From positions 1,798,001 to 1,862,000 of the forward strand of contig NW_027117343.1 of the NCBI RefSeq assembly GCF_038025025.1: a DNA stretch of 64,000 bases, in the 5' to 3' direction. The notes beneath the pieces were generated by a model. That model was not told the origin of the DNA and ran no database searches. It worked only from the letters and a program-made list of their open reading frames with translations. The DNA comes from Phyllosticta citribraziliensis (lineage: Eukaryota). The position numbers and the translations under genes were made by a program. Positions 24,076-57,394 of this stretch are shown piece by piece. Positions within the stretch are counted from its first letter, which is position 1, and the number at the start of each line of letters is the position of its first letter.

Positions 24076-27000
24076 ATGCTCGGTGCGAAACTGCTGCCCT
24101 CGCGCGTCTACGGCGGCAGCGAGTCGTCGCCGCGCCCCAGCTGGTACGACCGCCAGGTCTCGCCGCTGCTCCAGGCCGTGTGTCGTCGCGCCTGCACCCA
24201 CCCCATCCACACCATCGTCTTTACCGCCCTGCTCGCCAGCACCACCTACCTGAGCGTCATTGAGAGCAGCCTGTTCAATGGCCCCAGCTCCGTCACCACC
24301 TCTCTCGGCAAGGCCGACTTCACCACCTTGTTGGCCGGCAGCAAGGTCCTGAGGACTGGTCCCGCAACCGAGTGGAAGTGGCAGGCCGACGACGACCACA
24401 ATGCCACAGCCTCTGAGCAGGTACGGCGCATTCCTCAACTCTGCAACTCTCTGCTGACCCTCCAGGACACCGACCACGTCGCCTTGTTGACCCTCTTGTT
24501 CCCCGAGTCCACTCCCGCCAACGCCCCCCAGACTGCGCCTCTGAGCAAGGCCATTCCGCTGCCGCGCAACTCGTCCGCCGAGCTGCTGCCCAGCTCCTCG
24601 ACTGCCTTTTCGCAAATCTCCCACGACACCACCCTGGCCTTTTCCATACCCTACGATGAGACGCCCGAGTTTCTCGCCGCCATGCAAGAGATTCCCGCCC
24701 CCGTGGGTGCCTCTGATGCCAAAAAGGCCGACGACGGCTCGGTCGAGGAGAAGAAGTGGATCATGAAGGCCGTCAGGAATCCCAGCAAGTCGGGCGGCGT
24801 GCTCGAGCGCATCAACGACGCCTGGACCTCGTTTTTGGACCTTCTCAAGGTGCGTACTACGTCGACAAGAAGCGAAACGGCGCTAACCGTTGCCAGAATG
24901 CCGAAACCCTCGACATTGTCATCATGGCCTTGGGATACCTGTCAATGCACCTGACGTTTGTTTCCCTGTTCCTCTCCATGAGACGCTTGGGCTCAAACTT
25001 TTGGCTCGCCGCCACGGTGCTGTTCCAGTCCGTCTTTGCCTTTTTGTTTGGCTTGACCGTCACCACCAAGCTCGGCGTCCCCGTCAACATGGTCCTATTG
25101 TCCGAGGGCTTGCCATTCTTGGTCGTCACCATTGGATTCGAAAAACCCATTGTCCTCACCAAGGCCGTCCTCTCTGCGTCCCTCGACTCGCGCCGCCGCG
25201 TCTCCAACAGCGGCGAGAATGCCCCGCTCACCATCCAGTACGCCGTCCAGACGGCCGTCAAGGAAAAGGGCTTCGAGATTGTCCGCGACTACTTTGTCGA
25301 GATTCTCATCCTCGTGGCTGGCGCCTTTTCTGGCGTCCAGGGCGGCCTGCGCCAATTCTGCTTCTTGGCCGCTTGGATTCTCTTCTTCGACGCCCTCTTG
25401 CTGCTTACCTTTTACACGGCCATTCTGACCATCAAGCTCGAAATCAACCGCATCAAGCGTCATGTGGCGCTGCGCAAGGCGTTGGAGGATGACGGCGTCA
25501 GCCGCACCGTTGCCGAAAACGTTGCGTCCATCAACGACTGGCCCAAGCTCAACGGCTCGACCGACGGCGACGGTACCACCAAAACGACCGAGATTCCGGG
25601 CTTTGGCAAGAAGATGAGGGAGACGAGCATCCCCCGCTTCAAGGTGCTCATGGTTACTGGCTTCGTCGTTGTCAACGTCTTGAACCTGGCAACCATTCCT
25701 TTCCGCAGTGGCTACGGATCCAACATTGCGTCCTCGGGACTCTCGAGCATGGTCAACCCTGCCGCCATGGACCCTTTCAAGGTTGCTGGCAATGCGCTCG
25801 ACACCATTTTGGTTGCTGCCAAGGACAAGGACACTGCTACCCTCGTAACTGTTCTGGCACCCATCAAGTACGAGCTCGAGTACCCGTCGATTCACTACGC
25901 TGCTCCCGCGGCGACCTCGGGCCTTTTCGCCGGCGAATACAAGGACCAGCTCATGGACGGCATGGGCGGTCGTGTTGTCGAAGGTGTTCTCAAGAGCCTC
26001 GAGGACCCTGTCCTGAGCAAGTGGATCATTGTCGCATTGGCCCTCAGCTTGGCCTTCAACGGATACCTCTTCAACGCTGCCAGATGGTCCATCAAGGAGT
26101 CCCACCCGCCTCCCGACAAGCCCCCGGCAGAATACGAGGTCATGGACAAGTCGCCCAGCAGTGTCAGCCTCGTGGACCGCCCCGACAACATTCCGCCTAC
26201 CCCTCTCCAAGTCTCCGAGCCAAAGTTGCCTGAGCCTGCCCAGAATGGATCAATTGCCAATGGAACTGTTCCTCCGCCACATGTCCACGTCCCAACCGGC
26301 CCCACTCGTCCCATGGGCGAGTTGGAAGTCTTGCTCAAGCAAAAGAAGACGGCTGAAATGACTGACGAAGAAGTCATCGAGCTGTCCCTCTGCGGCAAAA
26401 TTCCCGGCTACGCTTTGGAAAAGACGCTGGAAAGCAAGACTCGCGCCGTCAAGGTTCGCCGTGCCGTCGTCGCCCGCACCCACGCCACCCGCCACACTTC
26501 TAGCTTGCTCGAAAAGTCGAAGCTGCCCTACGAGCACTACAACTACGACTTGGTTTACGGCGCTTGCTGCGAGAACGTCATTGGCTACCTGCCCTTGCCT
26601 GTTGGTGTCGCTGGTCCGCTGATGATTGACGGCCAAAACTACTTCCTCCCCATGGCCACTACCGAGGGTGTCTTGGTCGCGAGCACCAGTAGAGGCGCCA
26701 AGGCCATCAATGCTGGCGGCGGTGCCGTCACGGTCCTCACCAACGACGGAATGACTCGCGGTCCCTGCGTTGGCTTTGAGACTTTGGTGCGCGCGGGCCA
26801 GGCCAAGATTTGGCTCGACTCTGAAGAGGGTCAGAAGGTCATGAAGAATGCCTTCAACTCGACCAGCCGCTTCGCTCGTCTCCAAACCATCAAGACGGCG
26901 CTGGCCGGCACGTATCTGTACATTCGCTTCAAGACTACGACTGGTGACGCCATGGGCATGAACATGATTTCCAAGGGTGTTGAGCACGCCTTGAACATCA

Positions 27001-27749
27001 TGCGCAACGATTGCGGATTCGAGGACATGGCAGTCATTTCTGTTTCTGGCAACTACTGCACAGACAAGAAGCCTGCGGCCATCAACTGGATTGACGGACG
27101 CGGCAAGAGTGTCGTGGCCGAAGCCATTATTCCTGGAGAGGTTGTGAGGAACGTCCTCAAGAGCAACGTCGATGCACTTGTTGAGCTCAACATAAGCAAG
27201 AACTTGATCGGCTCGGCCATGGCTGGCAGCATTGGTGGTTTCAACGCTCACGCGGCCAACATTGTTACCGCCATTTTCCTGGCCACTGGTCAGGATCCTG
27301 CGCAAAACGTCGAGAGCAGCAACTGCATCGTCGTCATGAAAAAGTAAGTCTTTCACTGGATTTTTCAAGTGCCGCTGCTAACCTAGACTAGCCTCAACGG
27401 AAACCTCCAAATCTCCGTATCCATGCCGTGTATCGAAGTCGGCACCATTGGCGGCGGCACCATCCTCGAGCCGCAAAGCGCCATGCTCGACCTCCTGGGC
27501 GTCAGGGGCGCGCACCCGACCAGCCCCGGCGACAATGCCCGACAACTCGCTCGCATCGTGGCTGCGGCCGTCCTGGCCGGCGAACTGTCGCTCTGCAGTG
27601 CTCTCGCCGCCGGCCACTTGGTCCGCGCGCACATGAGCCACAACCGCAGCCAGGCGCCGTCGCGCGCGTCGACGCCCGCCCCGACGGGCACGCAGACGCC
27701 GACGACGCTGGCCATGACGAGCATTCAGGAGACGGCCAAGCGTCGTTAG
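24076..27749 (+). CDS. HMG1: Class I HMG-CoA reductase with HPIH and sterol-sensing domains; introns 24421-24465, 24850-24896, 27344-27391
   Basis: [65 protein letters not shown], catalytic His in HMSHNRS. Confidence 0.98.
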
Positions 27750-30762: not shown

Positions 30763-32623
30763 TCACACCCCTGATTTTCCTTCCCACGCCGAGTCTCCAT
30801 GTTCTTGCTTTGGATACCGCTTCGTCGGCCTGAAGCACGGGAGCCACTTCTTCAAGGCCTCCGTGAAGAGCTTCCTCGTCACAGCCGCATCCGGGCTAAC
30901 ACCGAAGTCGAATCCATGCTCCGAGTTCCGCATCATTCGACCAAAGATCTCGTCTTTCTTTGACACATTGCATTTCGGGATTTTGGAGGTGATTTTTGGA
31001 TGCGGTGCGGCGGGATCTTTACTGAAAAGGGTCCAAGGAGTCCAGGGATCGAATTCTCCCGCTGTCCAGAAAGTGTTGCTGGGTCGGATGTCCCATCCAC
31101 CGTACATTTGATTTGCAACGTCTTCCGGTATACCAAGATCTTCCAGGCCCTCACAGTACTTCGGCCGGAAAGAGCTGACCAGCTGCATCGATCTGTTGTT
31201 TGAAGTTGCCAAGCCGATCGGAAACTCTGTGCATGTTTGCCAACGCCAACTTGTTGCTGCTGCCTCGTCCCAGTCCGTTTGATTTTGTGGCTCCTTGCGA
31301 AAAGAAGCCCACTGGTCGACGACAAATTTTGCACCGCGGCTTGGTGCCCATCCATCCGCTCCGGCAATAGTGCCATTGTCAGTTGTCTCAATCCAGTCGC
31401 AAAACTTGCGGAATTGATGCCCCATGCCCACGTCCCTCCAACCTTCGAAAATCCCGGACAGATTTTGCGCAAATTCGTCATTGCTCGGCACCGTAATTCC
31501 CACACGAGCACCCAGAAACTGCCTCTTGAAGGCGGCGGCCGTCTTGGGGTTTTTCAAAAGGGTGTCGATGTGGAGAATTGCTGCGTTGATGTCCTTGGAG
31601 CAATTGCCAAAGCCGTATGCATTCATTCCGCGGTAGATTTGATCATAGTAGGGGCCAAACGCTTCGCCTAGTTGAAGAGGAGCGGACGATGCATATGCGG
31701 CGAAAATAACATGAGGGTAGTACTGCCGCAGCATCGCCGCCCGATTCCCAGGATAAGACGCGCCAACAAATATCCACGGCGTCGACTCTGGCGTCAAGTC
31801 GACTTTCGGAAACTTGGGACGGGAGAAGCGGGTCGCGAAATACTCCACGTCCTTTAAGGCTTGCGCCATGGTCAGGTAACGGAATTCATTCGCTGGTGTC
31901 TCTGAAGTGATGTTGACTGGGCTAGAGTCTCCATAGTAGCGGTGTTCCCAGACGATGCCAATGCTATCGGCAATTAGCTTTTCGACTTTTGTGGGTTTTC
32001 GAGGTCTTTGCTCACCCTCCGAAGTCGTCTACCATTCTTCTGAAGAAGGAAGACCCATTCCCAAGTATGTTCGGTGCATATTCTTCTGCGTTTGCCTCCC
32101 CAACATCGTAGACGAAGACCGGAAGGCCTTGGCCCAAATAATTGGCATCAGAAACCCAATACCGATTGAGGAAAGTGCGATTTGTGCCGCCATCAAAGTG
32201 ATCCAGAGGCATTTTGATGTACTCCGGCTCGATTCTTTCGCCGCTGGATTCAACCGTGAACCCTGATTCAGATCCAGCGGTAGGCTGGGTAGTCCCACTT
32301 TGACACAACTCAGACTGCTCAGACAGCTCAGAAAGGAATGAAGGCCACGCCTGGGTGGGCAGGTTGACCAATATACTGGAGAGAATGGGTGGTATGGTCT
32401 GGGTGCCTGGCATACTTCCGTCTGGGGATCGCATCAGCATACTGAAGTAACAACCTCGTCTCATCTCACTGGACGGGAACAAACTTGGATAAGAGCCTTG
32501 TTGGGCCATCTGGTCCCTTTTCCATGCGGCCGACCCATGGAGGCCGAGATTCTGACCGTGCGAATAGAGGATATTGAGAGAGAGGAGAGATAGGAATACG
32601 CTGATCCTGCCTGCGGAAAACAT
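30763..32623 (-). CDS. Secreted serine peptidase family S28; intron 32015-31964, further N-terminal introns possible
   Basis: Signal-like N-terminus; PLDHF..RYWV; spliced GGIGIVWEHRYYGDS; QALKD; catalytic GASYPG, GEFDPW, EHGFDF; WRWQTCTEF. Confidence 0.88.
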
Positions 32624-37460: not shown

Positions 37461-38669
37461 ATGTCCACCACCAAGACCTACAAGATTGCCTCTATCCCTG
37501 CCGATGGCATTGGTCCAGAGGTGGTAGAGGCGGGAATCGAGGTCCTGCAAACCCTTTCGGAGACGCTGCAGTCCTTCAAGTTTGACTTTACCAACTTTGA
37601 CTGGAGTTCGGAGCGGTACAAGAAGACTGGCCACTACATCCCCGAAGGCGGACTCGACGAGTTGCGCAAGCACGATGCCATTTTGTTCGGAGCTGTTGGA
37701 GCACCCGGTGAGTTGGCCAGCTGCTTAAGTTAAAACGGCAAATCGCTTATTCTTCCCAGACGTACCGGACCACATCTCGCTGTGGGGGCTGCGTCTAGCC
37801 ATCTGCCAAACCTTCCAGCAATACGCCAACGTCAGACCGACCAAGGTGTTCCGCGGCACGCAATCTCCGCTGCGCAATTGCGGCACTGGCGACCTGGACT
37901 GGGTCATCATCCGCGAGAACAGCGAAGGCGAGTACGCCGGCCAAGGTGGACGATCGCACCGCGGCAAGCCCTGGGAGACTGCAACCGAAGTCTCCATCTT
38001 CACGCGCCACGGAGTGGAGCGTCTGATGCGCTTCGCTTTCCAGACGGCGCAAAGCCGGCCCAGGAAGCTGATCACCGTTGTTACCAAGAGCAATGCCCAG
38101 CGCCACGGAATGGTGCTGTGGGACGAGGTCGCCAAGGACGTCGCGAAGGACTTTCCCGACGTCAAGGTCGACAAGATGCTCGTGGACGCCATGACGACTC
38201 GGATGGTGCTCGATCCTGCTTCTCTGGACACCATCGTCGCCACAAACCTGGTAAACCTTGGTTGACTCTCTCCGCATACCTTTTCGCTAACATCCACCAG
38301 CACGCCGACATCCTGTCTGACCTGGCCGCCGCTCTGGCCGGCTCGATTGGCATCGCGCCCACGTCAAACCTGGACCCCAGCAGGGAGAACCCGTCCATGT
38401 TCGAGCCGATCCACGGCTCCGCCTTCGACATCACCGGCAAGGGCGTTGCCAATCCTGTCGGCACTTTCTGGACTGCCGCTGAGATGCTTGCGTGGCTAGG
38501 CGAGAAGGACGCGAGCGAGAAGCTGCTGCTGGCCGTCGAGAACGTTTGTGCCAGCGGCATCGTGACCAAGGACCTTGGTGGAAACGCCAAGACGAAGGAA
38601 GTCACTACGGCCGTGCAAGCAGAGATCAAGAAGAGGTTTGGCGCAAACGGAGTAAATGGTAGCATCTAG
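37461..38669 (+). CDS. Tartrate dehydrogenase/decarboxylase (D-malate dehydrogenase-like), isocitrate/isopropylmalate dehydrogenase family; introns 37708-37759, 38251-38300
   Basis: IPADGIGPEV, DHISLWGLRL, QYANVRP, RENSEGEYAGQGGR, TKSNAQRHGMVLWD, FEPIHGSAFDI. The SLWGL and TKSN signatures point to the tartrate DH subgroup. Confidence 0.88.
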
Positions 38670-39521
38670 AATGTGCCGAGATAGATTGGACGACGAAATG
38701 ACCTCTTGAGCCTTCTAGAGATTTGTAAATAGGTTGGCGCAATTTGATTGGTATAGCACTCAGTGAATTCCGATGGTCAGTAAATCTCGCAATGATTTCG
38801 AGTAGCGCTCTGTTTTCGAATATTAAATGTGGTGTCGTCGCTGGGGTAACGACGTCGGAGTCGACGAGTAGCAAGACCGGCGCAGCTGCAAAGGACAACA
38901 TCATCAACTAGTCCGGTCCAAGGCGTCGAAGCGGTCTTTCAAGCACCGTGCAAGGGGCAGAAAGATGTCACGATAGACCGCGGCAGCATCGTCTCGGAGT
39001 AGCTTCAAGACCGCGCAGAAAAAAGAATGCGCTCAAAAAGCACAAGATTTGAGAAACAAACAGGAGCAGAGAGCGAATGAAAAATGAAAGGGGAGAGGGC
39101 TGGAAGCAGTGTGGTCGCTGTGGCGCACGCCGGTGTCGTTTGGGGTACCCCATTTCGTCAGCGCTACACCACCTCCACAATGCAGTTTGCGTGCTGGTCT
39201 CTGCACGTCAAACGGCCATGGCAGCCTCTCCACCATCGATCACCTAGAACGAAATTTGTACAAGTCGGCTCTGATTGTGAGGCGCAGCTGCCTGGCAACA
39301 CGGATGGTCGAGGCCAGTCCTGGATACACGGTGCGGCGACGCCGGCATGGACTAGAAGCCAGATCACATGGCTGGAGTGCCCCATCGTGGGTTTCATGAT
39401 CGATGCTTCGTGCGAAAGGCGACGGAAGTTTTGTGTGGGGGAGTAGGCACGATAAAGAGATTGGAATTTCTCGCGGGATTCCGTCTCTCACGCAGTTCTT
39501 GCATTGCATCACTTTGTCAAG

Positions 39522-42320
39522 ATGCGTTCGCTCGGCAGTGTTTTGTCTGTTAGCTCTTTGCTTCTCCACTCGGCCAGCGCGGCTCCGGCACTCCTTCCTT
39601 CATTGCCCACTGATGGACTCATCGCTACCCCTAATTTGCCGGGTGTTGATTCGCTGGCAAACACTGATGCTTTGACCGGAACCACTGATGGCCTTAACAT
39701 CGTTAAGAAGGGTCTTCTTCCCACGTTGCCTACCGATGGACTCGTCGCTACTCCCGACCTGACGGCCGTCGATGGCCTGACCGACACGGATGGACTGACA
39801 GACACGGAATCCTTGACCGGAGCTACCGACAGCCTGAACATCGTCAAGAAGGGTCTTTTGCCTGCGTTGGACAAGATTGTCGCCGCTCCTGGTTCCCTGG
39901 CGCCTGGATTGGACAATGGCGCAATTCCCGGAGTTACTCAACTCGCCAACAGCTTCAAGAGGGGACTTTTGCCCTCTGGAATCCTGCCTACCAACGGGCT
40001 TGCCACTACTCCAGATGTGACCAGTGTTGATTCTCTGGCCGGCACAGAAGGGTTGACAAACACGGATATGGGCTCCGTCGCGAACACTGACGGGCTGGCA
40101 AACACCGACTCTTTGACCGGAGCGACCCCAGATCTGACCAAGGGCGTCGACTCGTTGGCCAACACTGTAACCCTGGGCGGAATCACCCAAGGCTTCAATG
40201 TCGTCAAAAAAGGACTCTTGCCATCCGGTCTCTTGCCCACCAATGAACTTACCACTACCCCAGATGTGGCCGGTGTTGATTCTCTGGGAGGTACAGATGA
40301 GTTGACGAACACAGACGCCTTGACTGGAACGACCCCTGACCTGACGAAAGGTGTGGATTCCGTTACCCTGGGTGGCGTCACTCAAGGCTTCAACGTTGTC
40401 AAGAAGGGTCTCCTACCCGCCTTGGATGAATTGGTCGCCGCTCCGGGTGCTTTGACGGGATCCTCTGAGACTGATGCGATTCCCGGCATCACTGAGCTTG
40501 CCAACAGCTTCAAGAGGGGCCTCTTGCCTTCTGCAATCTTGCCGACCGGTGGCGAGGGGCTTGTTCCTGCTCCAGAGCTGGGTTCTTTGGCCGACACCGA
40601 CGTTCTGACTGAAGACACTCCGGACCTGGATATTCTCGAAAGGGGCCTCATGCCCACCGGGTTGTTGCCAACCAGCAACGAGGGTCTTGTTCCGACTCCA
40701 GACCTGCATTCGGTCGTTAACACTGACGCGCTGGGAGGAACTCCGAATCTGAACATTCTCACCCGAGGTCTTCTGCCCAGCGGGCTGCTGCCGACCAAGG
40801 GCGAAGGACTCGTGCCTACCCCAGACCTTCACTCCGTGGCCGACACCAACTCTTTGACCGATGGAATTCCGAATCTCAACATCCTCACGCGTGATCTTTT
40901 GAAATCGGGCATTCTGCCGACCGACGATCTCCTCAAGACGCCCGAAGCCTTGGGAGGCATCAATTCTCTGGCGGACACGGATGCCTTCATGGGAGCAACC
41001 GACGATCTCACCGCCATGGAAAAGAGAGGACTGGTCAAGGCCCTCACTGGCTCAGTCGACACGCTGTCTAAGCAGGTCAGCAAAGCCACGAGCACCAACG
41101 ACATTTTGAACCTGTTGGTCTCCGCCATCCCAGCCATTGCGGCGCCGACGAACGTGACTGCGCTCGTGGACACCCTTCAATCGATCTGGGGCTCTTCCCC
41201 TTCCAACTGGTACTCTGCGCTCGGTGCCCAGATCTTGGCCGGTGTCATCCCTGAAATTTCTCTGGGCAGCTTGACGACTGTTGTCGATCCCATCACGGGC
41301 ACCAGCTCTGTCACGAACAGTAACACCCGGGAGCCATCTGAGCCAGTATTCCCCCAGAAAGGCGTCAAGGACGCGCCCTACTCGCTGAGTGAGGCCGAGC
41401 TGCGCGAAATCATCTACTTCCCTGAAGAGTTCACCTACGGGCAGAAGCAGCCAGTCATTCTCATTCCGGGCACTGGCGTCTACGGCGGCGAAACTTTTGA
41501 GCACAACTGGGCGAAGCTGTTGAAAGACGTCGACTACGCCGATCCCCTCTGGCTCAACATCCCTAAGGCTTCGCTCCCGGATGCGCAGATCAACTCGGAG
41601 TACGTCGCATACGCCATCAACTACGTTGCCGGCATCACGAACCGCAACGTCAGCATCCTCACGTATTCCCAGGGTGGTCCAAATGCGCAGTGGGCCCTCA
41701 CCTTCTGGCCTTCCACTCGGAACGTCGTGTCCAACTTCTTCGGCGTGTCGGCCGACTTCCGCGGCACCGTCATGGCCAATCTGCTCTGCGTCAACCTCGG
41801 CGGCTCTACTGGCATCGGTCCCTGCGATCCATCCGTCATCCAGCAAGAGTACACAGCCGACTACGTAAAGGCCATGCGCAAGAAGGATTCTGGGTCGGCT
41901 TGGGTGCCCACGACGACGTTTTACACCGGTCTCTTCGACGAGATCGTGCAACCGCAGGGGGGCTCGGGCGGCTCGGGATACAGGTTCGACGTTCGCGATG
42001 TGGGCGTGACAAACAACCAGGCGCAGCTGGTATGTCCTGGGAAGCTTGCCGGCAGCTTCTACGGCCACGCCGCCATGCTGTACAACCCCATCACGTTTGC
42101 CCTGGTCAAGGACGCCTTGATCAACGGTGGTCCCGGCCAAGTGAAGAGGATTGACCTGGACGAGGTCTGCCCGCTCTACATCACTCCCCAGCTGTCGCTG
42201 ACGGACGCCATTTTGACCTCTGGAACGATCATCTTGGCTGGCATCAGGGTGTTGGCTTACTTTCCCAAGTACGTGACCGAGCCGGCCTTGATGGCGTATG
42301 TGAATAACGACGTTTCTTGA
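39522..42320 (+). CDS. Secreted CalB-type lipase (lipase B) preceded by ~480 aa of repeated peptide units with basic junctions
   Basis: Signal peptide MRSLGSVLSVSSLLLHSASA; lipase motifs PVILIPGTG, DAQINSEYVAYAIN, TYSQG (Ser at 41667), DFRGT, DEIVQPQ (Asp), GHAAML (His), corresponding to CalB TWSQG/D/H. Confidence 0.9.
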   Translation: MRSLGSVLSVSSLLLHSASAAPALLPSLPTDGLIATPNLPGVDSLANTDALTGTTDGLNIVKKGLLPTLPTDGLVATPDLTAVDGLTDTDGLTDTESLTGATDSLNIVKKGLLPALDKIVAAPGSLAPGLDNGAIPGVTQLANSFKRGLLPSGILPTNGLATTPDVTSVDSLAGTEGLTNTDMGSVANTDGLANTDSLTGATPDLTKGVDSLANTVTLGGITQGFNVVKKGLLPSGLLPTNELTTTPDVAGVDSLGGTDELTNTDALTGTTPDLTKGVDSVTLGGVTQGFNVVKKGLLPALDELVAAPGALTGSSETDAIPGITELANSFKRGLLPSAILPTGGEGLVPAPELGSLADTDVLTEDTPDLDILERGLMPTGLLPTSNEGLVPTPDLHSVVNTDALGGTPNLNILTRGLLPSGLLPTKGEGLVPTPDLHSVADTNSLTDGIPNLNILTRDLLKSGILPTDDLLKTPEALGGINSLADTDAFMGATDDLTAMEKRGLVKALTGSVDTLSKQVSKATSTNDILNLLVSAIPAIAAPTNVTALVDTLQSIWGSSPSNWYSALGAQILAGVIPEISLGSLTTVVDPITGTSSVTNSNTREPSEPVFPQKGVKDAPYSLSEAELREIIYFPEEFTYGQKQPVILIPGTGVYGGETFEHNWAKLLKDVDYADPLWLNIPKASLPDAQINSEYVAYAINYVAGITNRNVSILTYSQGGPNAQWALTFWPSTRNVVSNFFGVSADFRGTVMANLLCVNLGGSTGIGPCDPSVIQQEYTADYVKAMRKKDSGSAWVPTTTFYTGLFDEIVQPQGGSGGSGYRFDVRDVGVTNNQAQLVCPGKLAGSFYGHAAMLYNPITFALVKDALINGGPGQVKRIDLDEVCPLYITPQLSLTDAILTSGTIILAGIRVLAYFPKYVTEPALMAYVNNDVS
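39582..41027 (+). repeat. Ten degenerate coding repeats (37-83 aa), mostly starting GLLP and ending KK/KR/ER/TR
   Basis: Recurring junctions NIVKK|GLLP (x2), NSFKR|GLLP (x2), NVVKK|GLLP (x2), DILER|GLMP, NILTR|GLLP, NILTR|DLLK, AMEKR|GLVK. Confidence 0.92.
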
Positions 42321-42737
42321 TAACATGCATTGGTGCGGAAAAGGCGGTGCATTGAGCGAGGAGTTGCTTGGCGTTGTTTTCTGTTTGATTGTTCATTTCC
42401 TTTCGACGTTTAGATTTTTGCTTCGCTGCAAGTAGATTCTGCATTGATCAATCGCACTGTTGTTGGCTTTGTCGAGTGCTTCCATTGCATGTGAGTGCGA
42501 AATCGGCGAGCTTGTTGCAGATGCCGATCTTCCCCGCAATACGTCATATGTTCCGATTCGTCCACACGGCGGCAGCGGAAACTTGATACGCGCATTGCGA
42601 GATTGAAGCTAGCTGCCGAATTCCGAGGAGCGGCTGGCTATCATTCAAATCAGCAATCGTCCTCAATGTTCATGTAGCCAAGTATCCGCAGCCTTTTTTG
42701 TACTCTCAGCAGCGTCCAGCTTTCCATTGAACAGCCA

Positions 42738-44054
42738 ATGTCTTCCGCAACGGTTCCCGTGGCATCTGCCCCGCCTGAGCGTAAATATGGCCAATATCAA
42801 AACGAGATATACGCCAAGGGCATGTTTCAAAGCCAATTCTCCGACGTGACGACCGATCCGAACAAGCTGGAGGCCCAAGCGAAGGAGATCTTGAGCGCGC
42901 GGGCTTATGCCTACGTGGGCGGTGGAGCGGGGGAGCGCGCCACCATGGATGCAAATCGGGCTGCTTTCAGATCTTGGAAGGTGAGTCTTTTTTTTTGATT
43001 TGACATCAGCAGCTCGCATCAATGCAGCTGACATGGGACGAATCTGTAGCTTGTCCCGCGCATGCTTGTGCCAACAACACCTCGTGACATGCGAGTCACG
43101 ATTTTTGGGCAGCAATACGATAGCCCTCTTCTCTTCTCGCCGGTCGGGGTACAATCCATATTTCATGAAGACAAAGAGACGGGCGTCGCGGAGATCGCTG
43201 CAGAGCTCGGGGTGCCGTACATTATGAGTACAGCAGCGAGCTCCACCATTGAAGAGGTTGCACGAGCCAGTGGAAATGGCAAAAGGTGGTTTCAGCTGTA
43301 CTGGCCATTGGACGACGAGATCACCATCTCAATTCTGAAGCGCGCCAAGGAGAACGGCTTTTCGGTGTTGGTCGTCACACTCGATACCTGGACGCTAGCC
43401 TGGAGGCCGTGGGACTTGGACAATGGCTACGTTCCGTTTGTCAAGGGCGTTGGCAACTCGGTCGGCTTTTCGGATCCTGTCTTCAGGCGCAAATTCAAGG
43501 AGAAACACGGCAAAGAAGTCGACGAAGATATTCTCACGGCCAGCAGAGAATGGGCGGCGACTGCATTCTCAGGAGCGTCGCACACTTGGGATGAGGTGGA
43601 GTTGCTCAAGAAGCATTGGGACGGCCCAATTGTTCTCAAAGGAATTCAGCATCCAGCAGATGCGGCCAAGGCGGCGGAAATCGGCGTGGACGGCATCATT
43701 GTGTCGAACCATGGCGGAAGGCAACTCGATGGAGCCATTGGGTCGTTGTCAATGCTGCCAGAGATTGCCGATGCGGTCGGCGACAAGTTGACTGTGCTCT
43801 TCGACAGCGGTGCCAGGACAGCTGTCGACATCATCAAGGCTTTATCTCTGGGAGCAAAGGGTGTCTGCATCGGAAGGCCATGGGTGTACGGCCTAGGGAT
43901 AGCCGGCAAAGTCGGAGCCAAAAGCGTGATGCAAGGACTGCTCGCAGACCTGGATCAAAGCATGGGTTTGGCAGGCATCCAGAACACCAAGGGCTGCAAC
44001 CGTGATGTGCTGAGGCAGATTGATTATCCTGGAGATAAGGCGTCTTCGAGTTGA
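42738..44054 (+). CDS. FMN-dependent alpha-hydroxy acid oxidase/dehydrogenase (lactate 2-monooxygenase-like); intron 42981-43049
   Basis: YVGGGAG, LVPRML, PVGVQ, WFQLY, LVVTLDT, VLKGI, VSNHGGRQLDG, DSGAR, GRP motifs of the FMN_dh family. Confidence 0.93.
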
Positions 44055-55135: not shown

Positions 55136-57394
55136 ATGGCCTCGCGCATCATCCCCGATCGCCTCAAGCCCTCCACCAACGACGGTGACGCCGACGGCTT
55201 CTCGAGGCACCATGGCAAGACCCAGTCTCACATGGTAAGCCAACTTTTTTCCCCTCGCCATGTTGCCCGCCAGCGGCGTGCCACTCGCCGCTCTTGAACA
55301 CAATGTCACTCCACGCTTGACGCCGACGCCGTGCGACTTGCATTGGCCGCTCAAAACCCGTCGAACCCTTCGCAAACGACCTCGCCTGCGAGTAAACATC
55401 CGCCGCCTCACCCACCCCACTCCTCGGCCGCCACCCCTCAACACCACCGTCGATCATGACAGCACGAGCCATAAACACATGCGACACCGCCTTGCCCCCC
55501 GTCCACCGCCACCTCGAGTGCGCTGGCTTGGGGCTTGGGCCACGGACACGCACCATGGGAGCAACTGTCGGAAACACCTGATGGGCCCCGATCATGGCAC
55601 GTCGACGACTCCATCCAGATCATCGTCGCCATGCCGTCTGACGAGGCCACTCTCGGCGCGGGACCAGCTGTTTGGCCCCACACTCTACGTGGAAACCTGT
55701 AACAGCCCCTTATCCCTGGTGCTTCAGTCCCGCCCACCGGCCCGTCCCATGCTCTCGCCGCCCAATGTGGCTGCCACCTCAAATACCGGCTTCGACTCTG
55801 GACCTCACTTGACAAGCTCGTGGCACGCTGCTGGCACCATGGCGCAAACCTACGTCAATGGCAATACTAACGGTGACCAGGCCTTTGAGAACACCTCCAC
55901 CTCTGTCGCCGCCTCGCAGATGCGCAATGCGCTTAACCAGCTCGTCGACACCGTCCAGGACCCTGCTGAGAAGCAGGTAAGCACGCTTCACCTCTCATAC
56001 AATGCCTCAATGCTAACTCCCAACAGAGGTTCGAGACGGAAATGGACAACTTCTTCGCCCTCTTCCGCCGCTACCTGAACGACAAGGCCAAGGGCAACGC
56101 CATTGAGTGGTCCCGCATCGCTCCTCCCAAGCCCGAGCAGGTCGTCGACTACCACGACCTCGCCGACACCCAGTCCCAGGAGTACCTGAAGAAGCTTGCC
56201 GTCGTCAAGCTCAACGGTGGTCTTGGTACCTCCATGGGCTGCGTTGGCCCCAAGTCCGTCATTGAGGTCCGCGACGGCATGTCCTTCCTCGACCTGTCGG
56301 TCCGTCAGATCGAGTACCTCAACCGCACCTACGATGTCAACGTTCCCTTTGTCCTCATGAACTCGTTCAACACAGACGCCGACACGGCCAACATCATCAA
56401 GAAGTACGAGGGCCACAACATTGACATCATGACCTTCAACCAGTCCAAGTACCCCCGTGTGCTCAAGGACTCTCTTCTCCCCGCGCCCAAGAGCGCCTCG
56501 TCGCAGATCTCCGACTGGTACCCCCCTGGTCACGGTGACGTTTTCGAGTCCATGTACAACTCTGGCATCCTCGACAAGCTCATCGACCGCGGCATCGAGT
56601 ACATCTTCCTCTCCAACGCCGACAACTTGGGCGCCGTCGTCGACCTCCGCATCCTCCAGCACATGACTGACACCAAGTCGGAGTACATCATGGAGCTGAC
56701 GGACAAGACCAAGGCCGACGTCAAGGGTGGTACCATCATCGACTACGAGGGCTCGGTCCGTCTTCTCGAAATCGCCCAGGTCCCCAAGGAGCACGTCAAC
56801 GAGTTCAAGTCGATCAAGAAGTTCAAGTACTTCAACACCAACAACATCTGGCTCAGCCTCAATGCCGTCAAGCGCGTTGTCGAGAACAACGAGCTGGCCA
56901 TGGAAATCATCCCCAACGAGAAGAGCATCCCGGCCGACAAGAAGGGCGAGGCCGACCTTTCGGTCATCCAGCTCGAGACGGCCGTCGGTGCCGCCATCCG
57001 CCACTTCAACAACGCGCACGGTGTCAACGTGCCCCGCAGGCGCTTCTTGCCCGTCAAGACTTGCTCCGACCTCATGCTCGTCAAGTCTGACCTCTACACG
57101 CTGCAGCACGGCCAGCTCGTCATGGACCCCAACCGCTTCGGTCCTGCTCCTCTCATCAAGCTCGGCTCCGACTTCAAGAAGGTGTCGAGCTTCCAGTCGC
57201 GCATCCCGTCGATCCCCAAGATCCGCGAGCTGGACCACCTCACCATCACGGGAGCGGTCAACATTGGCCGCGGTGTCACGCTCAAGGGCACGGTCATCAT
57301 TGTGGCGACCGAGGGCCAGACGATCGACATTCCTCCGGGATCCATCCTGGAGAACGTCGTCGTGCAGGGCAGCCTGAGGCTGCTCGAGCACTAA
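55136..57394 (+). CDS. UGP1: UTP-glucose-1-phosphate uridylyltransferase; exons 55136-55233, 55881-55976, 56028-57394
   Basis: [72 protein letters not shown]-terminal GSLRLLEH. Confidence 0.97.

Follow-up and report, generated by a model that had tools for sequence, protein, structure and literature searches.

A probable pre-pro-lipase gene of Phyllosticta citribraziliensis with ten repeat units ahead of its enzyme

The reading frame at nt 39522..42320 (+) of the 64-kb window (the whole stretch of DNA of this leaf-spot fungus analysed here) places an array of repeats ending in basic residues, the layout of the fungal KEPs, ahead of a lipase, and it raises the question of whether the gene encodes a precursor of secreted peptides plus an enzyme, or an enzyme with an unusually large pro-region.

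The reading frame and its parts

Our analysis finds 932 aa there without interruption, comprising a signal peptide, ten Cys-free acidic units and a complete lipase, as a preliminary description of this DNA had claimed. The start codon is the first ATG of the ORF, with A at -3, and there are no candidate plus-strand introns with fungal splice signals within the 932 codons. The parts of the frame are:

39522..39581 (+): signal peptide, aa 1-20, MRSLGSVLSVSSLLLHSASA; n-h-c layout, predicted cut before APALLP
39582..39710 (+): unit 1, aa 21-63, ends IVKK; common alignment frame, profile match
39711..39851 (+): unit 2, aa 64-110, ends IVKK; 29/41 aa identical to unit 1, dN/dS 0.13
39852..39962 (+): unit 3, aa 111-147, short type, ends SFKR; common alignment frame
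39963..40211 (+): unit 4, aa 148-230, long type, ends VVKK; partly in public models P0150 and P0145
40212..40406 (+): unit 5, aa 231-295, long type, ends VVKK; 54/65 aa identical to unit 4, pS 0.57, dN/dS 0.08
40407..40517 (+): unit 6, aa 296-332, short type, ends SFKR; 25/37 aa identical to unit 3, dN/dS 0.16
40518..40643 (+): unit 7, aa 333-374, ends ILER; P4 Ile, P2 Glu and P1 Arg, as in the extended Kex2 motif given in PMC8528282
40644..40766 (+): unit 8, aa 375-415, ends ILTR; common alignment frame
40767..40892 (+): unit 9, aa 416-457, ends ILTR; 31/41 aa identical to unit 8, pS 0.68, dN/dS 0.09
40893..41027 (+): unit 10, aa 458-502, ends AMEKR, the predicted pro/mature junction, with R502 in the junction column of the family
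41028..41351 (+): start of the mature lipase, its N-terminal subdomain, aa 503-610; matched to the 7v6d chain from residue 17
41352..42320 (+): alpha/beta-hydrolase core, aa 611-932, through to the stop codon; by homology and conserved triad
41667-41669 (+): Ser716, in TYSQG; catalytic triad by alignment
41937-41939 (+): Asp806; catalytic triad by alignment
42066-42068 (+): His849; catalytic triad by alignment

Homologues agree with this N-terminus. In 71 of 81 of them residues 1-20 are aligned with residues 1-26 of the query, and M1 reaches at least 90% conservation in the homologue alignment; an N-terminal ER signal peptide like that of KEPs is thus indicated both by the n-h-c layout and by alignment with homologue signal peptides. 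The ten units all fit one alignment frame, in which the boundary block reads N-[IVS]-[VFL]-[KTE]-[KR] before the boundary and G-L-[LM]-P after it. The codons of this block vary (Arg is AGG three times and also CGA, CGT and AGA), and even units 8 and 9 differ in their terminal Arg codons, CGA and CGT, respectively. A profile made from the units matches exactly those ten places in the six-frame translation of the window and nowhere else in it, and no relatives of the repeat region were found in two large protein libraries. The units end, in order, in KK, KK, KR, KK, KK, KR, ER, TR, TR and KR, and unit mapping places the end of the last KR (aa 502) at nt 41027, the position given for it in the preliminary description. 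The GLLP-like start proposed to follow nearly every site holds in the looser form GL[LMV][PK] at nine of the ten sites, the exception being DLLK at one. DNA copies that are merely 60-86% alike, together with contigs from three further runs (one of them from a relative) that cover the same repeat structure, show that the array is not an assembly artefact, and we reject that source for the repeats.

The 482 residues of the pro-region (aa 21-502) include no C, Y or W, and their composition (L 17%, T 14%, G 12%, D 9%, Pro 8%) gives a pI of about 4; Ser plus Thr make up 95 of the 482 (20%), and the repeats lack N-glycosylation sequons. Seventeen of the 23 K/R residues of this region are at unit ends and six are away from them, with a basic P1 at all ten ends. 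Dibasic pairs number seven where 1.05 are expected, a count reached in 2 of 100,000 residue shuffles, a statistic to be read with the fact that the units are homologous and their basic ends not independent events. GC3 is lower in the repeat part (0.61) than in the lipase part (0.78).

From aa 503 to 932 the protein is homologous over its whole length to LTL1 of Lasiodiplodia theobromae (7V6D) and AFLB of Aspergillus fumigatus (6IDY), with which it shares the N-terminal subdomain, the Ser-Asp-His triad and an inserted loop region flanked by Cys. The match to 7v6d has an E value of 3.6e-124 (query 513-927 to chain 17-430) and that to 6idy 2.4e-94; CalB (1TCA and others) is a more distant relative than these two, its 15 chain sequences matching query 642-927 with E values of 5.7e-33 to 2.1e-29. 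Identity to relatives outside Phyllosticta is about 47-50%. The motifs xSQG, DEIVQPQ and H of the triad are present, and S716, D806 and H849, which had been described as a TYSQG/D/H triad, are invariant in an 8-sequence alignment; across 82 aligned sequences this still holds for D806 and H849, and the conservation of S716 is at least 90%. Residues 503-932 are therefore predicted to form a lipase B of the CalB/LTL1/AFLB type with an intact triad. The earlier label "CalB-type" was right as to a complete lipase B of this fold family, but the subtype is that of LTL1 and AFLB, with an N-terminal subdomain of about 110 aa such as is described in those enzymes (PMC8508680, PMC12734981), and not the bare CalB form.

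The pro-peptide junction and the unit boundaries

The position of the last unit end relates the repeats to the rest of the lipase family. Across 81 homologues the column of R502 holds Arg in 56, gaps in 23 and other residues in two; P4 of this junction is L in 36, I in 10 and V in 8 (54 together), at P2, E occurs in 35 and K in nine, and a position-specific matrix of the junction gives 12.5 bits at R502 alone. LTL1 and other Botryosphaeriales relatives have EKR or DKR before the mature N-terminus, as here, and EKR is retained in the citricarpa, citriasiana and capitalensis models. Since KR 501-502 sits in this family-wide pro-peptide junction column, the repeats would be an expansion of the lipase's own pro-region. 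That the array might be a "hugely expanded pro-region" had been offered as an alternative, and it gains support from the R502 homology and from the signal peptide alignment (71/81). The expansion is large: between signal peptide and junction LTL1, AFLB and other relatives have a pro-peptide of about 10-35 aa, whereas here there are 482 aa of repeats. The junction P2 in the family is mostly Glu, not Lys (35/56), and Kex2 cutting of the family junction is itself deduced.

The sequence A-M-E-K-R502 before the folded mature part is also what is described for K2PP proteins, whose N-terminal pro-domain ends in KR/RR or LxxR and is removed in the secretory pathway (PMC8528282). Taking these points together, we think it on balance probable that a single exon here encodes a secreted pre-pro-lipase that belongs to the LTL1/AFLB/CalB family, with a genus-specific expansion of the pro-region and Kex2-type cutting.

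How many of the ten sites would be cut is less uniform. According to a review, P1 of Kex2 sites is "almost exclusively Arg", and the extended motif combines Arg at P1 with Lys or Arg/Thr/Pro/Glu/Ile at P2 and an aliphatic P4, or "LxxR" (PMC8528282). Among KEP sites KK is counted too, but "to a lesser extent" (PMC6339444), cuts after a single Arg are reported for KEPs expressed in Pichia (PMC9769878), and a yeast study saw in vitro cleavage at no more than about two thirds of the Kex2 sites predicted (PMC2515848). Here P1 is Arg in a compatible context at six of the ten sites and Lys at four. The KK, ER and TR sites had all been put forward as possibly weaker. This seems correct for the four KK sites, which are doubtful, but the ER and TR sites, with Ile at P4, fit the extended motif.

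Public models, antisense RNA and selection on the units

Eleven public Phyllosticta models of this gene, of 182-444 aa, all differ from the 932-aa reading; each is cut short at the N-terminus or mis-spliced, none has a signal peptide or contains the full repeat region, and among them there are four different 5' solutions, with several flagged partial. The short forms arise from an internal start at Met499 or Met490 or from a 969-nt intron that removes aa 260-583 (P0150 corresponds to window aa 169-259 plus 584-932). The introns proposed by these models or by RNA contigs are:

40301..41269 (+): 969-nt "intron" shared by public models P0150 and P0145; probably an artefact of gene prediction
40704..40762 (-): antisense intron, 59 nt, GTGAGA..CAG; a run X1 contig joins across it
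40368..40416 (-): antisense intron, 49 nt, GTAGGA..CAG; a run X3 contig joins across it
41621..41701 (-): antisense intron, 81 nt, GTGAGG..TAG; spliced and unspliced in run X1

The 969-nt "intron" has a weak donor (GTTGAC), no branch-like CTRAY in its last 60 nt and a length that is in frame; it is about 15 times as long as the three introns at the locus, would delete the conserved N-terminal subdomain and is absent among the RNA contig joints at the locus. All three joints in the RNA-like contigs (two runs) are GT..AG on the minus strand, and no sense-strand transcripts were seen in them. In run X1 the 81-nt antisense intron is present in a spliced contig of depth 139.6 and an unspliced one of 177.9; no contig of that run is unspliced over 40702-40760, so the abundant RNA there is antisense. 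This abundant spliced antisense RNA suggests condition-dependent control.

The units have diverged far at the DNA level. Paralogous pairs have pS of 0.48-0.69, with synonymous sites near saturation, while amino acid identity between units is 56-83% (38-83% in all pairs compared); dN/dS is 0.08-0.2 for the closest pairs, with 0.08 (units 4-5), 0.09 (8-9), 0.13 (1-2), 0.16 (3-6) and 0.17 (7-9), and is higher, 0.42-0.50, for pairs 7-8 and 9-10. Judged from these codon comparisons, the units are old and under strong protein-level purifying selection, which means that their sequence matters beyond mere length or composition. Between the P. citrichinensis model P0145 and the window, 78 of 90 residues are identical in the HSP over units 4-5, with few differences ahead of the model's splice point, and 340 of 361 in the lipase HSP; this stretch of repeats thus appears about as conserved between Phyllosticta species as the enzyme. 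Run X4 comes from a relative with two alleles, and its contigs cover 39525-40809, 40679-41099 and 41075-41420. Its indels in the ORF total 3 + 12 nt per allele and are in frame, while those upstream of the ATG are of 2, 2 and 1 nt. Among the 30 substitutions listed in the repeats 16 are synonymous and none is at a basic site, a tally that rests on 40 of 361 differences. One allele of the relative has an extra AAG (Lys) just before the KR of unit 3.

Known precursors and the possible fates of the units

The KEP search rule of Umemura 2020 takes at least three repeats of at least 8 aa with no more than 100 aa between KR/KK/RK/RR (PMC7329392). Six units in a row here, 37-83 aa long, have KK or KR at their boundaries and three more have ER/TR, so the claimed KEP-like layout of signal, repeats and basic sites fused to a lipase is real and falls within that published rule. 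It differs from typical KEPs, which are described as small and almost all cores, with 9-24 aa the commonest class (Le Marquer 2019, PMC6339444; Umemura 2020, PMC7329392), in its long units, its three non-dibasic boundaries and its 430-aa enzyme. An alpha-factor-type pheromone precursor can be rejected: there are no STE13 XA/XP dipeptides, GL follows nine of the ten sites and DL one, and the units are 37-83 aa long and 38-83% identical. The dikaritin (ustiloxin-type) precursors, another suggested parallel, also fail, with no Tyr in aa 21-502 and no DUF3328/UstYa in any of 36 ORFs scanned between 24.7 and 57.5 kb, where the neighbours are metabolic or housekeeping genes.

The layout has a precedent in Ustilago maydis Hum3, in which a hydrophobin domain is reported to follow 17 repeats of 31-36 aa; Kex2 motifs separate 14 of these repeats (PMC4617103). 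Both have a signal peptide, imperfect tandem units between Kex2 motifs and a C-terminal folded domain in one polypeptide; that domain is a lipase here and a hydrophobin in Hum3, and the two fungi belong to different phyla. Rep1 of the same fungus, with 12 repeats of 34-55 aa, is described as yielding peptides by processing (PMC4617103). The units here fit Rep1 and Hum3 in size and layout, but are acidic and only weakly amphipathic. The preliminary description knew of no KEP-lipase fusion, and we likewise found none in searches of an open-access library of papers, although Hum3 is a precedent for repeats plus a folded domain. Of single-pro-domain enzymes, the Rhizopus chinensis lipase has a 94-aa prosequence with a Kex2 cut at K66R67, and the intact prosequence lowers its activity (PMC4417512). 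It belongs to a different lipase fold family, and the pro-domains of such lipases and of K2PP proteins are single, non-repetitive and under 100 aa, whereas the one here is five times longer and made of ten units, each with a site.

The mechanism that we propose begins with a short pro-peptide of the relatives' kind (about 10-35 aa, ending (L)x(E/K)R), which would have become a 482-aa acidic pro-region in the genus Phyllosticta. After removal of the signal peptide in the ER, a kexin (Kex2-type) protease in the late Golgi would, by homology of the site, cut after Arg502 and free a 430-aa lipase with its N-terminal subdomain and the Ser716/Asp806/His849 triad. The same protease would probably also cut at five internal Arg sites (SFKR147, SFKR332, ILER374, ILTR415 and ILTR457), and less certainly at the four [IV]VKK sites. 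The secreted products would then be the lipase and, at a fixed stoichiometry, six to ten acidic peptides that are rich in Thr, Leu, Gly and Asp and about 35-185 aa long, and the units might act as free peptides or, before cleavage, as a chaperone or inhibitor of the lipase. No specific peptide activity is indicated for them. The idea that they are surface-active is not borne out, the maximal alpha-helical hydrophobic moment exceeding 99% of shuffles in just two of the ten units and the beta moments lying below the shuffle means; AlphaFold2 on unit 5, with the ten units as alignment, gives mostly coil (mean pLDDT 59.4, pTM 0.18). The units are thus without strong amphipathicity and without a confident fold. 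A bolder reading, which we hold as a possibility, is that they are genus-specific secreted bioactive or structural peptides grafted onto the lipase pro-peptide, made from one mRNA at a fixed enzyme:peptide ratio at the host or leaf surface, kept since before the citrus-associated Phyllosticta diverged and possibly gated by the spliced antisense RNA.

The mechanism proposed above has to be weighed against others. The repeats could be a large pro-domain and nothing else, removed whole or in a few pieces at the three KR sites. It would serve the lipase itself by acting as an intramolecular chaperone, inhibiting it, keeping it soluble, helping to sort it or shielding the cell that makes it, and its fragments would have no function of their own. 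The ancestral nature of the junction KR, the chaperone or inhibitory roles reported for Kex2-cut Rhizopus lipase prosequences (PMC4417512, PMC4430139), the suspicion that K2PP effector pro-domains are chaperones (PMC8528282) and the weak amphipathicity and fold of the units all agree with this. However, relatives whose N-termini could be read have only short pro-peptides, so the ten units are not needed for folding, N-terminal repeats occur in none of ten long forms, and a basic P1 kept at all ten ends through near-saturated synonymous divergence is difficult to account for unless the internal sites are cut at least sometimes; we regard a pro-domain of this kind as somewhat unlikely. An uncleaved N-terminal extension, an O-glycosylated spacer or a wall- or surface-binding arm on the secreted enzyme, seems improbable. 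Its Thr (14%) and Pro (8%) would allow O-mannosylation, long Ser/Thr-rich tails exist in other family members (C-terminal in seven of ten long forms), and predicted Kex2 sites are not all cut (PMC2515848), but with only 20% S+T and 17% Leu the region is unlike those tails, it lacks N-glycosylation sequons, its unit sequences are conserved beyond composition, and a conserved EKR junction lies between the supposed arm and the enzyme.

It is more improbable still that the 932-aa protein is not made, either because a short form like those of the public models is the true product or because the locus is silenced by antisense RNA, the repeat ORF being a relic or a separate entity. The 11 models of 182-444 aa without the full repeat region, the long "intron" common to P0150 and P0145 and the antisense splicing of the RNA contigs all point that way. 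On the other hand, a short form would lack the signal peptide that 71 of 81 relatives have, the models disagree among themselves in their 5' ends and are in several cases partial, and the "intron" has the defects given above; moreover, the repeat frame is open for 482 codons, is under purifying selection and has in-frame indels in the relative.

An enzyme at the C-terminal end of a Kex2-site repeat array is what would be new here, the Hum3 layout being already known; in searches of an open-access library of papers we found no earlier case of such an array fused to a hydrolytic enzyme. The public models of citrus-associated Phyllosticta lack the signal peptide, so secretome and effector predictions miss this lipase and its repeats, and KEP surveys that start from annotated proteins likewise miss them. 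Condition-dependent control by the spliced antisense RNA is worth testing. If the bolder reading of the units is true, the gene would amount to a polycistron-like cassette, found in nature, of "peptides plus enzyme". The gene also shows how multiplication can turn a short pro-peptide with its cleavage site into an array like that of a peptide precursor, which may be a route to the origin of KEPs or to the gain of co-secreted partners by enzymes.

The open reading frame and its repeat units

A 932-codon open reading frame, with A at position -3 of its first ATG, runs without interruption on the plus strand (39522..42320). Its N-terminus, MRSLGSVLSVSSLLLHSASA/APALLP, is built like a signal peptide, and 71 of the 81 homologous lipases in alignment A2 place their first 20 residues on query residues 1–26. 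Amino acids 21–502 (the pro-region) form ten units, and their ends in the translated frame agree exactly with those of the preliminary description, including the last KR at nt 41027:

Ends of the ten units (position of the last amino acid)
Unit 1: KK63
Unit 2: KK110
Unit 3: KR147
Unit 4: KK230
Unit 5: KK295
Unit 6: KR332
Unit 7: ER374
Unit 8: TR415
Unit 9: TR457
Unit 10: KR502

All ten fit one common alignment frame, GLLP(SG)LPT..GL.ATPDL..(VDSL)..NTDALTG.T.DL..N[IV][VL][KTE][KR], and a profile built from them, run against all six reading frames of the 64-kb window, matches the ten units alone. The site order (KK, KK, KR; KK, KK, KR; ER, TR, TR, KR) has a higher-order pattern, in which a short SFKR-type unit closes each of two triplets. 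The pro-region is rich in Leu, Thr, Gly and Asp, has a pI of about 4, and contains no Cys, Tyr or Trp and no N-glycosylation sequons. Within the one frame GC3 is 0.61 in the repeats (39582–41027) versus 0.78 in the lipase part (41028–42317); despite this gap the codon-choice fractions of the two parts are correlated (r = 0.76).

There are seven dibasic pairs in the pro-region where 1.05 are expected (2 of 100,000 shuffles reach seven), and unit ends hold 17 of its 23 Lys and Arg residues. Given the homology of the units, such counts are a weaker argument than the evolutionary one. The proportion of synonymous differences between paralogous units, 0.48–0.69, is near saturation; the closer pairs have 56–83% amino acid identity, and dN/dS is 0.08 (units 4–5), 0.09 (8–9), 0.13 (1–2), 0.16 (3–6) and 0.17 (7–9), with 0.42–0.50 in the most divergent pairs. 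The codons of the boundary block vary from unit to unit. In X4, a run from a relative with two alleles and about 90–95% identity, 16 of 30 substitutions in the repeats are synonymous and none of the 30 is at a basic site, in a partial sample of 40 of the 361 differences. Indels in X4 total 3 + 12 nt per allele in the open reading frame and are of 2, 2 and 1 nt 5' of the ATG. Read from sequence comparison, the selection data say that the sequence of the units matters. One X4 allele has an additional AAG directly before KR147 (window 39957–39962), which gives F-K-K-R, and both alleles have a 12-nt insertion in unit 5 that restores four residues that unit 4 has extra.

Several other accounts of the repeats were weighed. 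An assembly artefact, which the preliminary description named as a possible undoing of its proposal, does not fit the divergence of the copies: their DNA likeness is 60–86% and Tandem Repeats Finder detects no array over them, so that neither assembly collapse nor a recent expansion can account for them. Three other public runs have contigs over the same repeat structure, and those of X4 bridge both the repeats and the repeat–lipase junction. The composition (S+T 20%, Leu 17%) does not resemble a Ser/Thr stalk, and the pro-region falls on the "ordered" side in a charge–hydropathy analysis, so that a simple disordered linker is at most a possible description of it. AlphaFold2, run on a single unit with an alignment of all ten, returned mostly coil at low confidence (pLDDT 59), and amphipathicity by hydrophobic moment is weak, with two of the ten units beyond 99% of shuffles. 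The likeness to dikaritin precursors that had been drawn earlier fails, and a dikaritin-type RiPP or RiPP cluster is excluded, as the units have no Tyr and none of the 36 ORFs scanned around the gene is a DUF3328 gene. The neighbours (HMG-CoA reductase, S28 peptidase, 3HCDH, alpha/beta hydrolase, Iso_dh, FMN_dh, importin-11, FolB and UGPase) are ordinary metabolic and housekeeping genes, and no biosynthetic cluster is seen among those listed in the window, which include the following:

Neighbouring genes (window coordinates)
24717–27344, HMG-CoA reductase with sterol-sensing domain
30766–32028, S28 serine carboxypeptidase
37734–38666, isocitrate/isopropylmalate-type dehydrogenase
43050–44051, FMN-dependent dehydrogenase
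55970–57391, UDP-glucose pyrophosphorylase

The lipase part and the pro-peptide junction

Amino acids 513–927 match LTL1 of Lasiodiplodia theobromae (7v6d, E 3.6e-124), the lipase part also matches AFLB of Aspergillus fumigatus (6idy, E 2.4e-94), and CalB entries align from residue 642 onward (~1e-32). With these matches and a conserved triad of Ser716 (in TYSQG), Asp806 (DEIVQPQ) and His849, the complete lipase with a TYSQG/D/H triad that had been read from the DNA is borne out. The ~110 residues after Arg502 are the counterpart of the N-terminal subdomain of LTL1 and AFLB, which is absent from CalB according to two papers (PMC8508680; PMC12734981). The whole protein gives no Pfam family above threshold (DUF1542 is sub-threshold, E 0.28), and Pfam has no model for the lipase B family to which the Ser716 enzyme, judged by its sequence, can be assigned. 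Long C-terminal Ser/Thr-rich tails of 100–350 aa occur in the lipase B homologues P0009, P0012, P0024, P0018, P0020, P0023 and P0007 (Venturia and others), which suggests wall- or surface-tethered forms, another way to extend the same enzyme.

In ordinary relatives the signal peptide is followed by a short leader, which ends in L-[ED]-[EK]-R, and then by [QG]-L-L-x-G-L-L. In the A2 column of R502, the last residue of unit 10, Arg is present in 56 of the 81 homologues (23 have gaps and 2 have other residues); P4 is L/I/V in 54 homologues, P2 is Glu in 35 of the 56 and Lys in 9, and EKR or DKR stands there in the Botryosphaeriales relatives, LTL1 among them. The leader end is a putative family-wide LxxR-type pro-peptide site, which is not discussed in the accessible portion of the LTL1 paper. 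Both the leader end and the [QG]LLxGLL that follows are conserved in lipase B homologues from Dothideomycetes and Sordariomycetes.

The repeats thus occupy the place of the usual short pro-peptide. Flanked by a signal peptide and a junction that both have their homologues in the family, they represent an expanded pro-region of the lipase. This was the alternative of a "hugely expanded pro-region" in the preliminary description, and the position of KR502 in the family junction column upholds it. By eye R/GLLPSGLLPT in the units resembles R/QLLPGLLSG in the family. Three tests nevertheless leave unsupported the idea that the units were copied from the junction or the mature N-terminus of the lipase itself: a unit HMM against 143 homologues gave a best E of 0.027 (reversed controls 0.14); in an ungapped PSSM from 46 family junctions site 502 alone scores (12.5 bits), with -3 to -15 for the remaining nine unit ends; and a gapped junction profile gives the real pro-region -9.6 bits, a value equalled or exceeded by 650 of the 965 shuffles listed.

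Distribution, public gene models and antisense RNA

The separate searches with the two parts that had been proposed earlier gave a divided result, the lipase part being nearest to Phyllosticta models (93% identity in P. citricarpa and P. paracitricarpa, 74% in P. capitalensis; best matches after these at most 59%) and the repeat part finding no relatives in the protein libraries. A word-indexed protein search with residues 1–505 (lengths 512–1631) gave no match among 8000 scored candidates, an exhaustive phmmer search of 1.84 billion representatives none at E <= 0.001, the ESM Atlas no usable match, and JGI metagenome contigs 280 pattern matches with no relatives. These blanks are not proof of absence, because they are partly due to truncated public gene models. 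A 15-billion-protein collection does not contain the exact 932-aa protein, and none of ten long-form relatives outside Phyllosticta has N-terminal repeats, their extensions being C-terminal Ser/Thr-rich tails, Cys-rich tails or a merged neighbouring gene.

A cluster look-up gave 11 Phyllosticta models of 182–444 aa (P0025, P0026, P0145–P0153) from P. citricarpa, P. paracitricarpa, P. citriasiana, P. citrichinensis, P. citribraziliensis and P. capitalensis. All 11 are N-terminally truncated, partial or equipped with a doubtful 969-nt intron, and they offer four differing 5' solutions:

Solutions for the 5' end in the public models
Solution 1: start at the Met of A-M-E-KR
Solution 2: start at the Met nine residues before that of solution 1 (MGAT..EKR)
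Solution 3: start within unit 4, then a 969-nt in-frame "intron" (window 40301–41269)
Solution 4: fragments

From the MGAT..EKR starts it follows that P. citricarpa and P. capitalensis have the tail of unit 10. The partial P. citribraziliensis model (P0150) is identical to the window over aa 169–259 and 584–932 (349/349), and the P. citrichinensis model (P0145) contains units 4–5 with the VVKK/GLLP boundary, a stretch about as similar to the window as the enzyme is (340/361). The donor of this "intron" (GTTGAC) is weak, a branch-like motif is lacking, and splicing it out would delete the conserved N-terminal subdomain; we regard it as a prediction artefact. Since none of the 11 models has a signal peptide, lists of secreted proteins and effectors probably lack the gene. 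It is not mentioned in the accessible text of a Phyllosticta genome paper (PMC6965161).

Contigs of X1 and X3, two runs that behave as RNA, contain three joints, all CT..AC on the plus strand and hence GT..AG on the minus strand:

Antisense introns
40368–40416, minus strand, 49 nt, donor GTAGGA
40704–40762, minus strand, 59 nt, donor GTGAGA
41621–41701, minus strand, 81 nt, donor GTGAGG; both spliced and retained forms seen

They belong to a spliced natural antisense transcript (minus strand, window 39300–42500) that spans all repeats and part of the lipase, and its splicing differs between the two runs. As no X1 contig covers 40704–40762 unspliced, this transcript appears to be the dominant RNA at the locus in X1. 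The longest ORF on this transcript, of 397 aa, mirrors the frame of the lipase with its high GC3 and matches no Pfam family. Contigs of the runs covering the locus show neither a splice nor a start on the sense strand. The antisense RNA may explain the confused gene models.

Predicted processing and related systems

According to a Kex2 review (PMC8528282), P1 is almost exclusively Arg, P2 may be Lys, Arg, Thr, Pro, Glu or Ile, and Leu or another aliphatic residue is favoured at P4 (the "LxxR" motif). Judged by these preferences, SFKR147, SFKR332 and MEKR502 would be canonical, ILER374, ILTR415 and ILTR457 would fit the extended motif, and the four [IV]VKK sites are doubtful for Kex2. The earlier view that the KK, ER and TR sites are weaker thus stands for KK, with its P1 Lys, and falls for ER and TR. 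In other reports, KK is accepted as a site in KEP surveys (PMC6339444; PMC7329392), cuts after a single Arg were observed in KEPs expressed in Pichia (PMC9769878), and about two thirds of predicted sites were cleaved in vitro in a yeast study (PMC2515848). The STE13 signature is absent after the sites, since GL follows them. Cutting after Arg only would give fragments of 127, 185, 42, 41, 42 and 45 aa and a 430-aa lipase; full cutting with Kex1-type trimming would give ten peptides of 35–81 aa. We lean slightly towards a pre-pro-lipase with predicted cleavage at the junction and probable internal cleavage.

The signal–repeat–basic-site layout of a KEP that had been proposed is sustained at the level of formal definition, under which the 932-aa protein falls with its processing as predicted. 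The closest layout is that of U. maydis Hum3, in which 17 repeats carrying Kex2 motifs precede a hydrophobin domain (PMC4617103), and the present protein combines features of repeat precursors and K2PP pro-domains, two Kex2-processed fungal classes distinguished in the same review (PMC8528282). A Kex2-cut prosequence can modulate the lipase in Rhizopus pro-lipases (PMC4417512). No report of a Kex2-repeat–enzyme fusion of this kind was found in the literature searched. The repeat–lipase architecture is real, conserved and unannotated, and the processing predicted for it is plausible.
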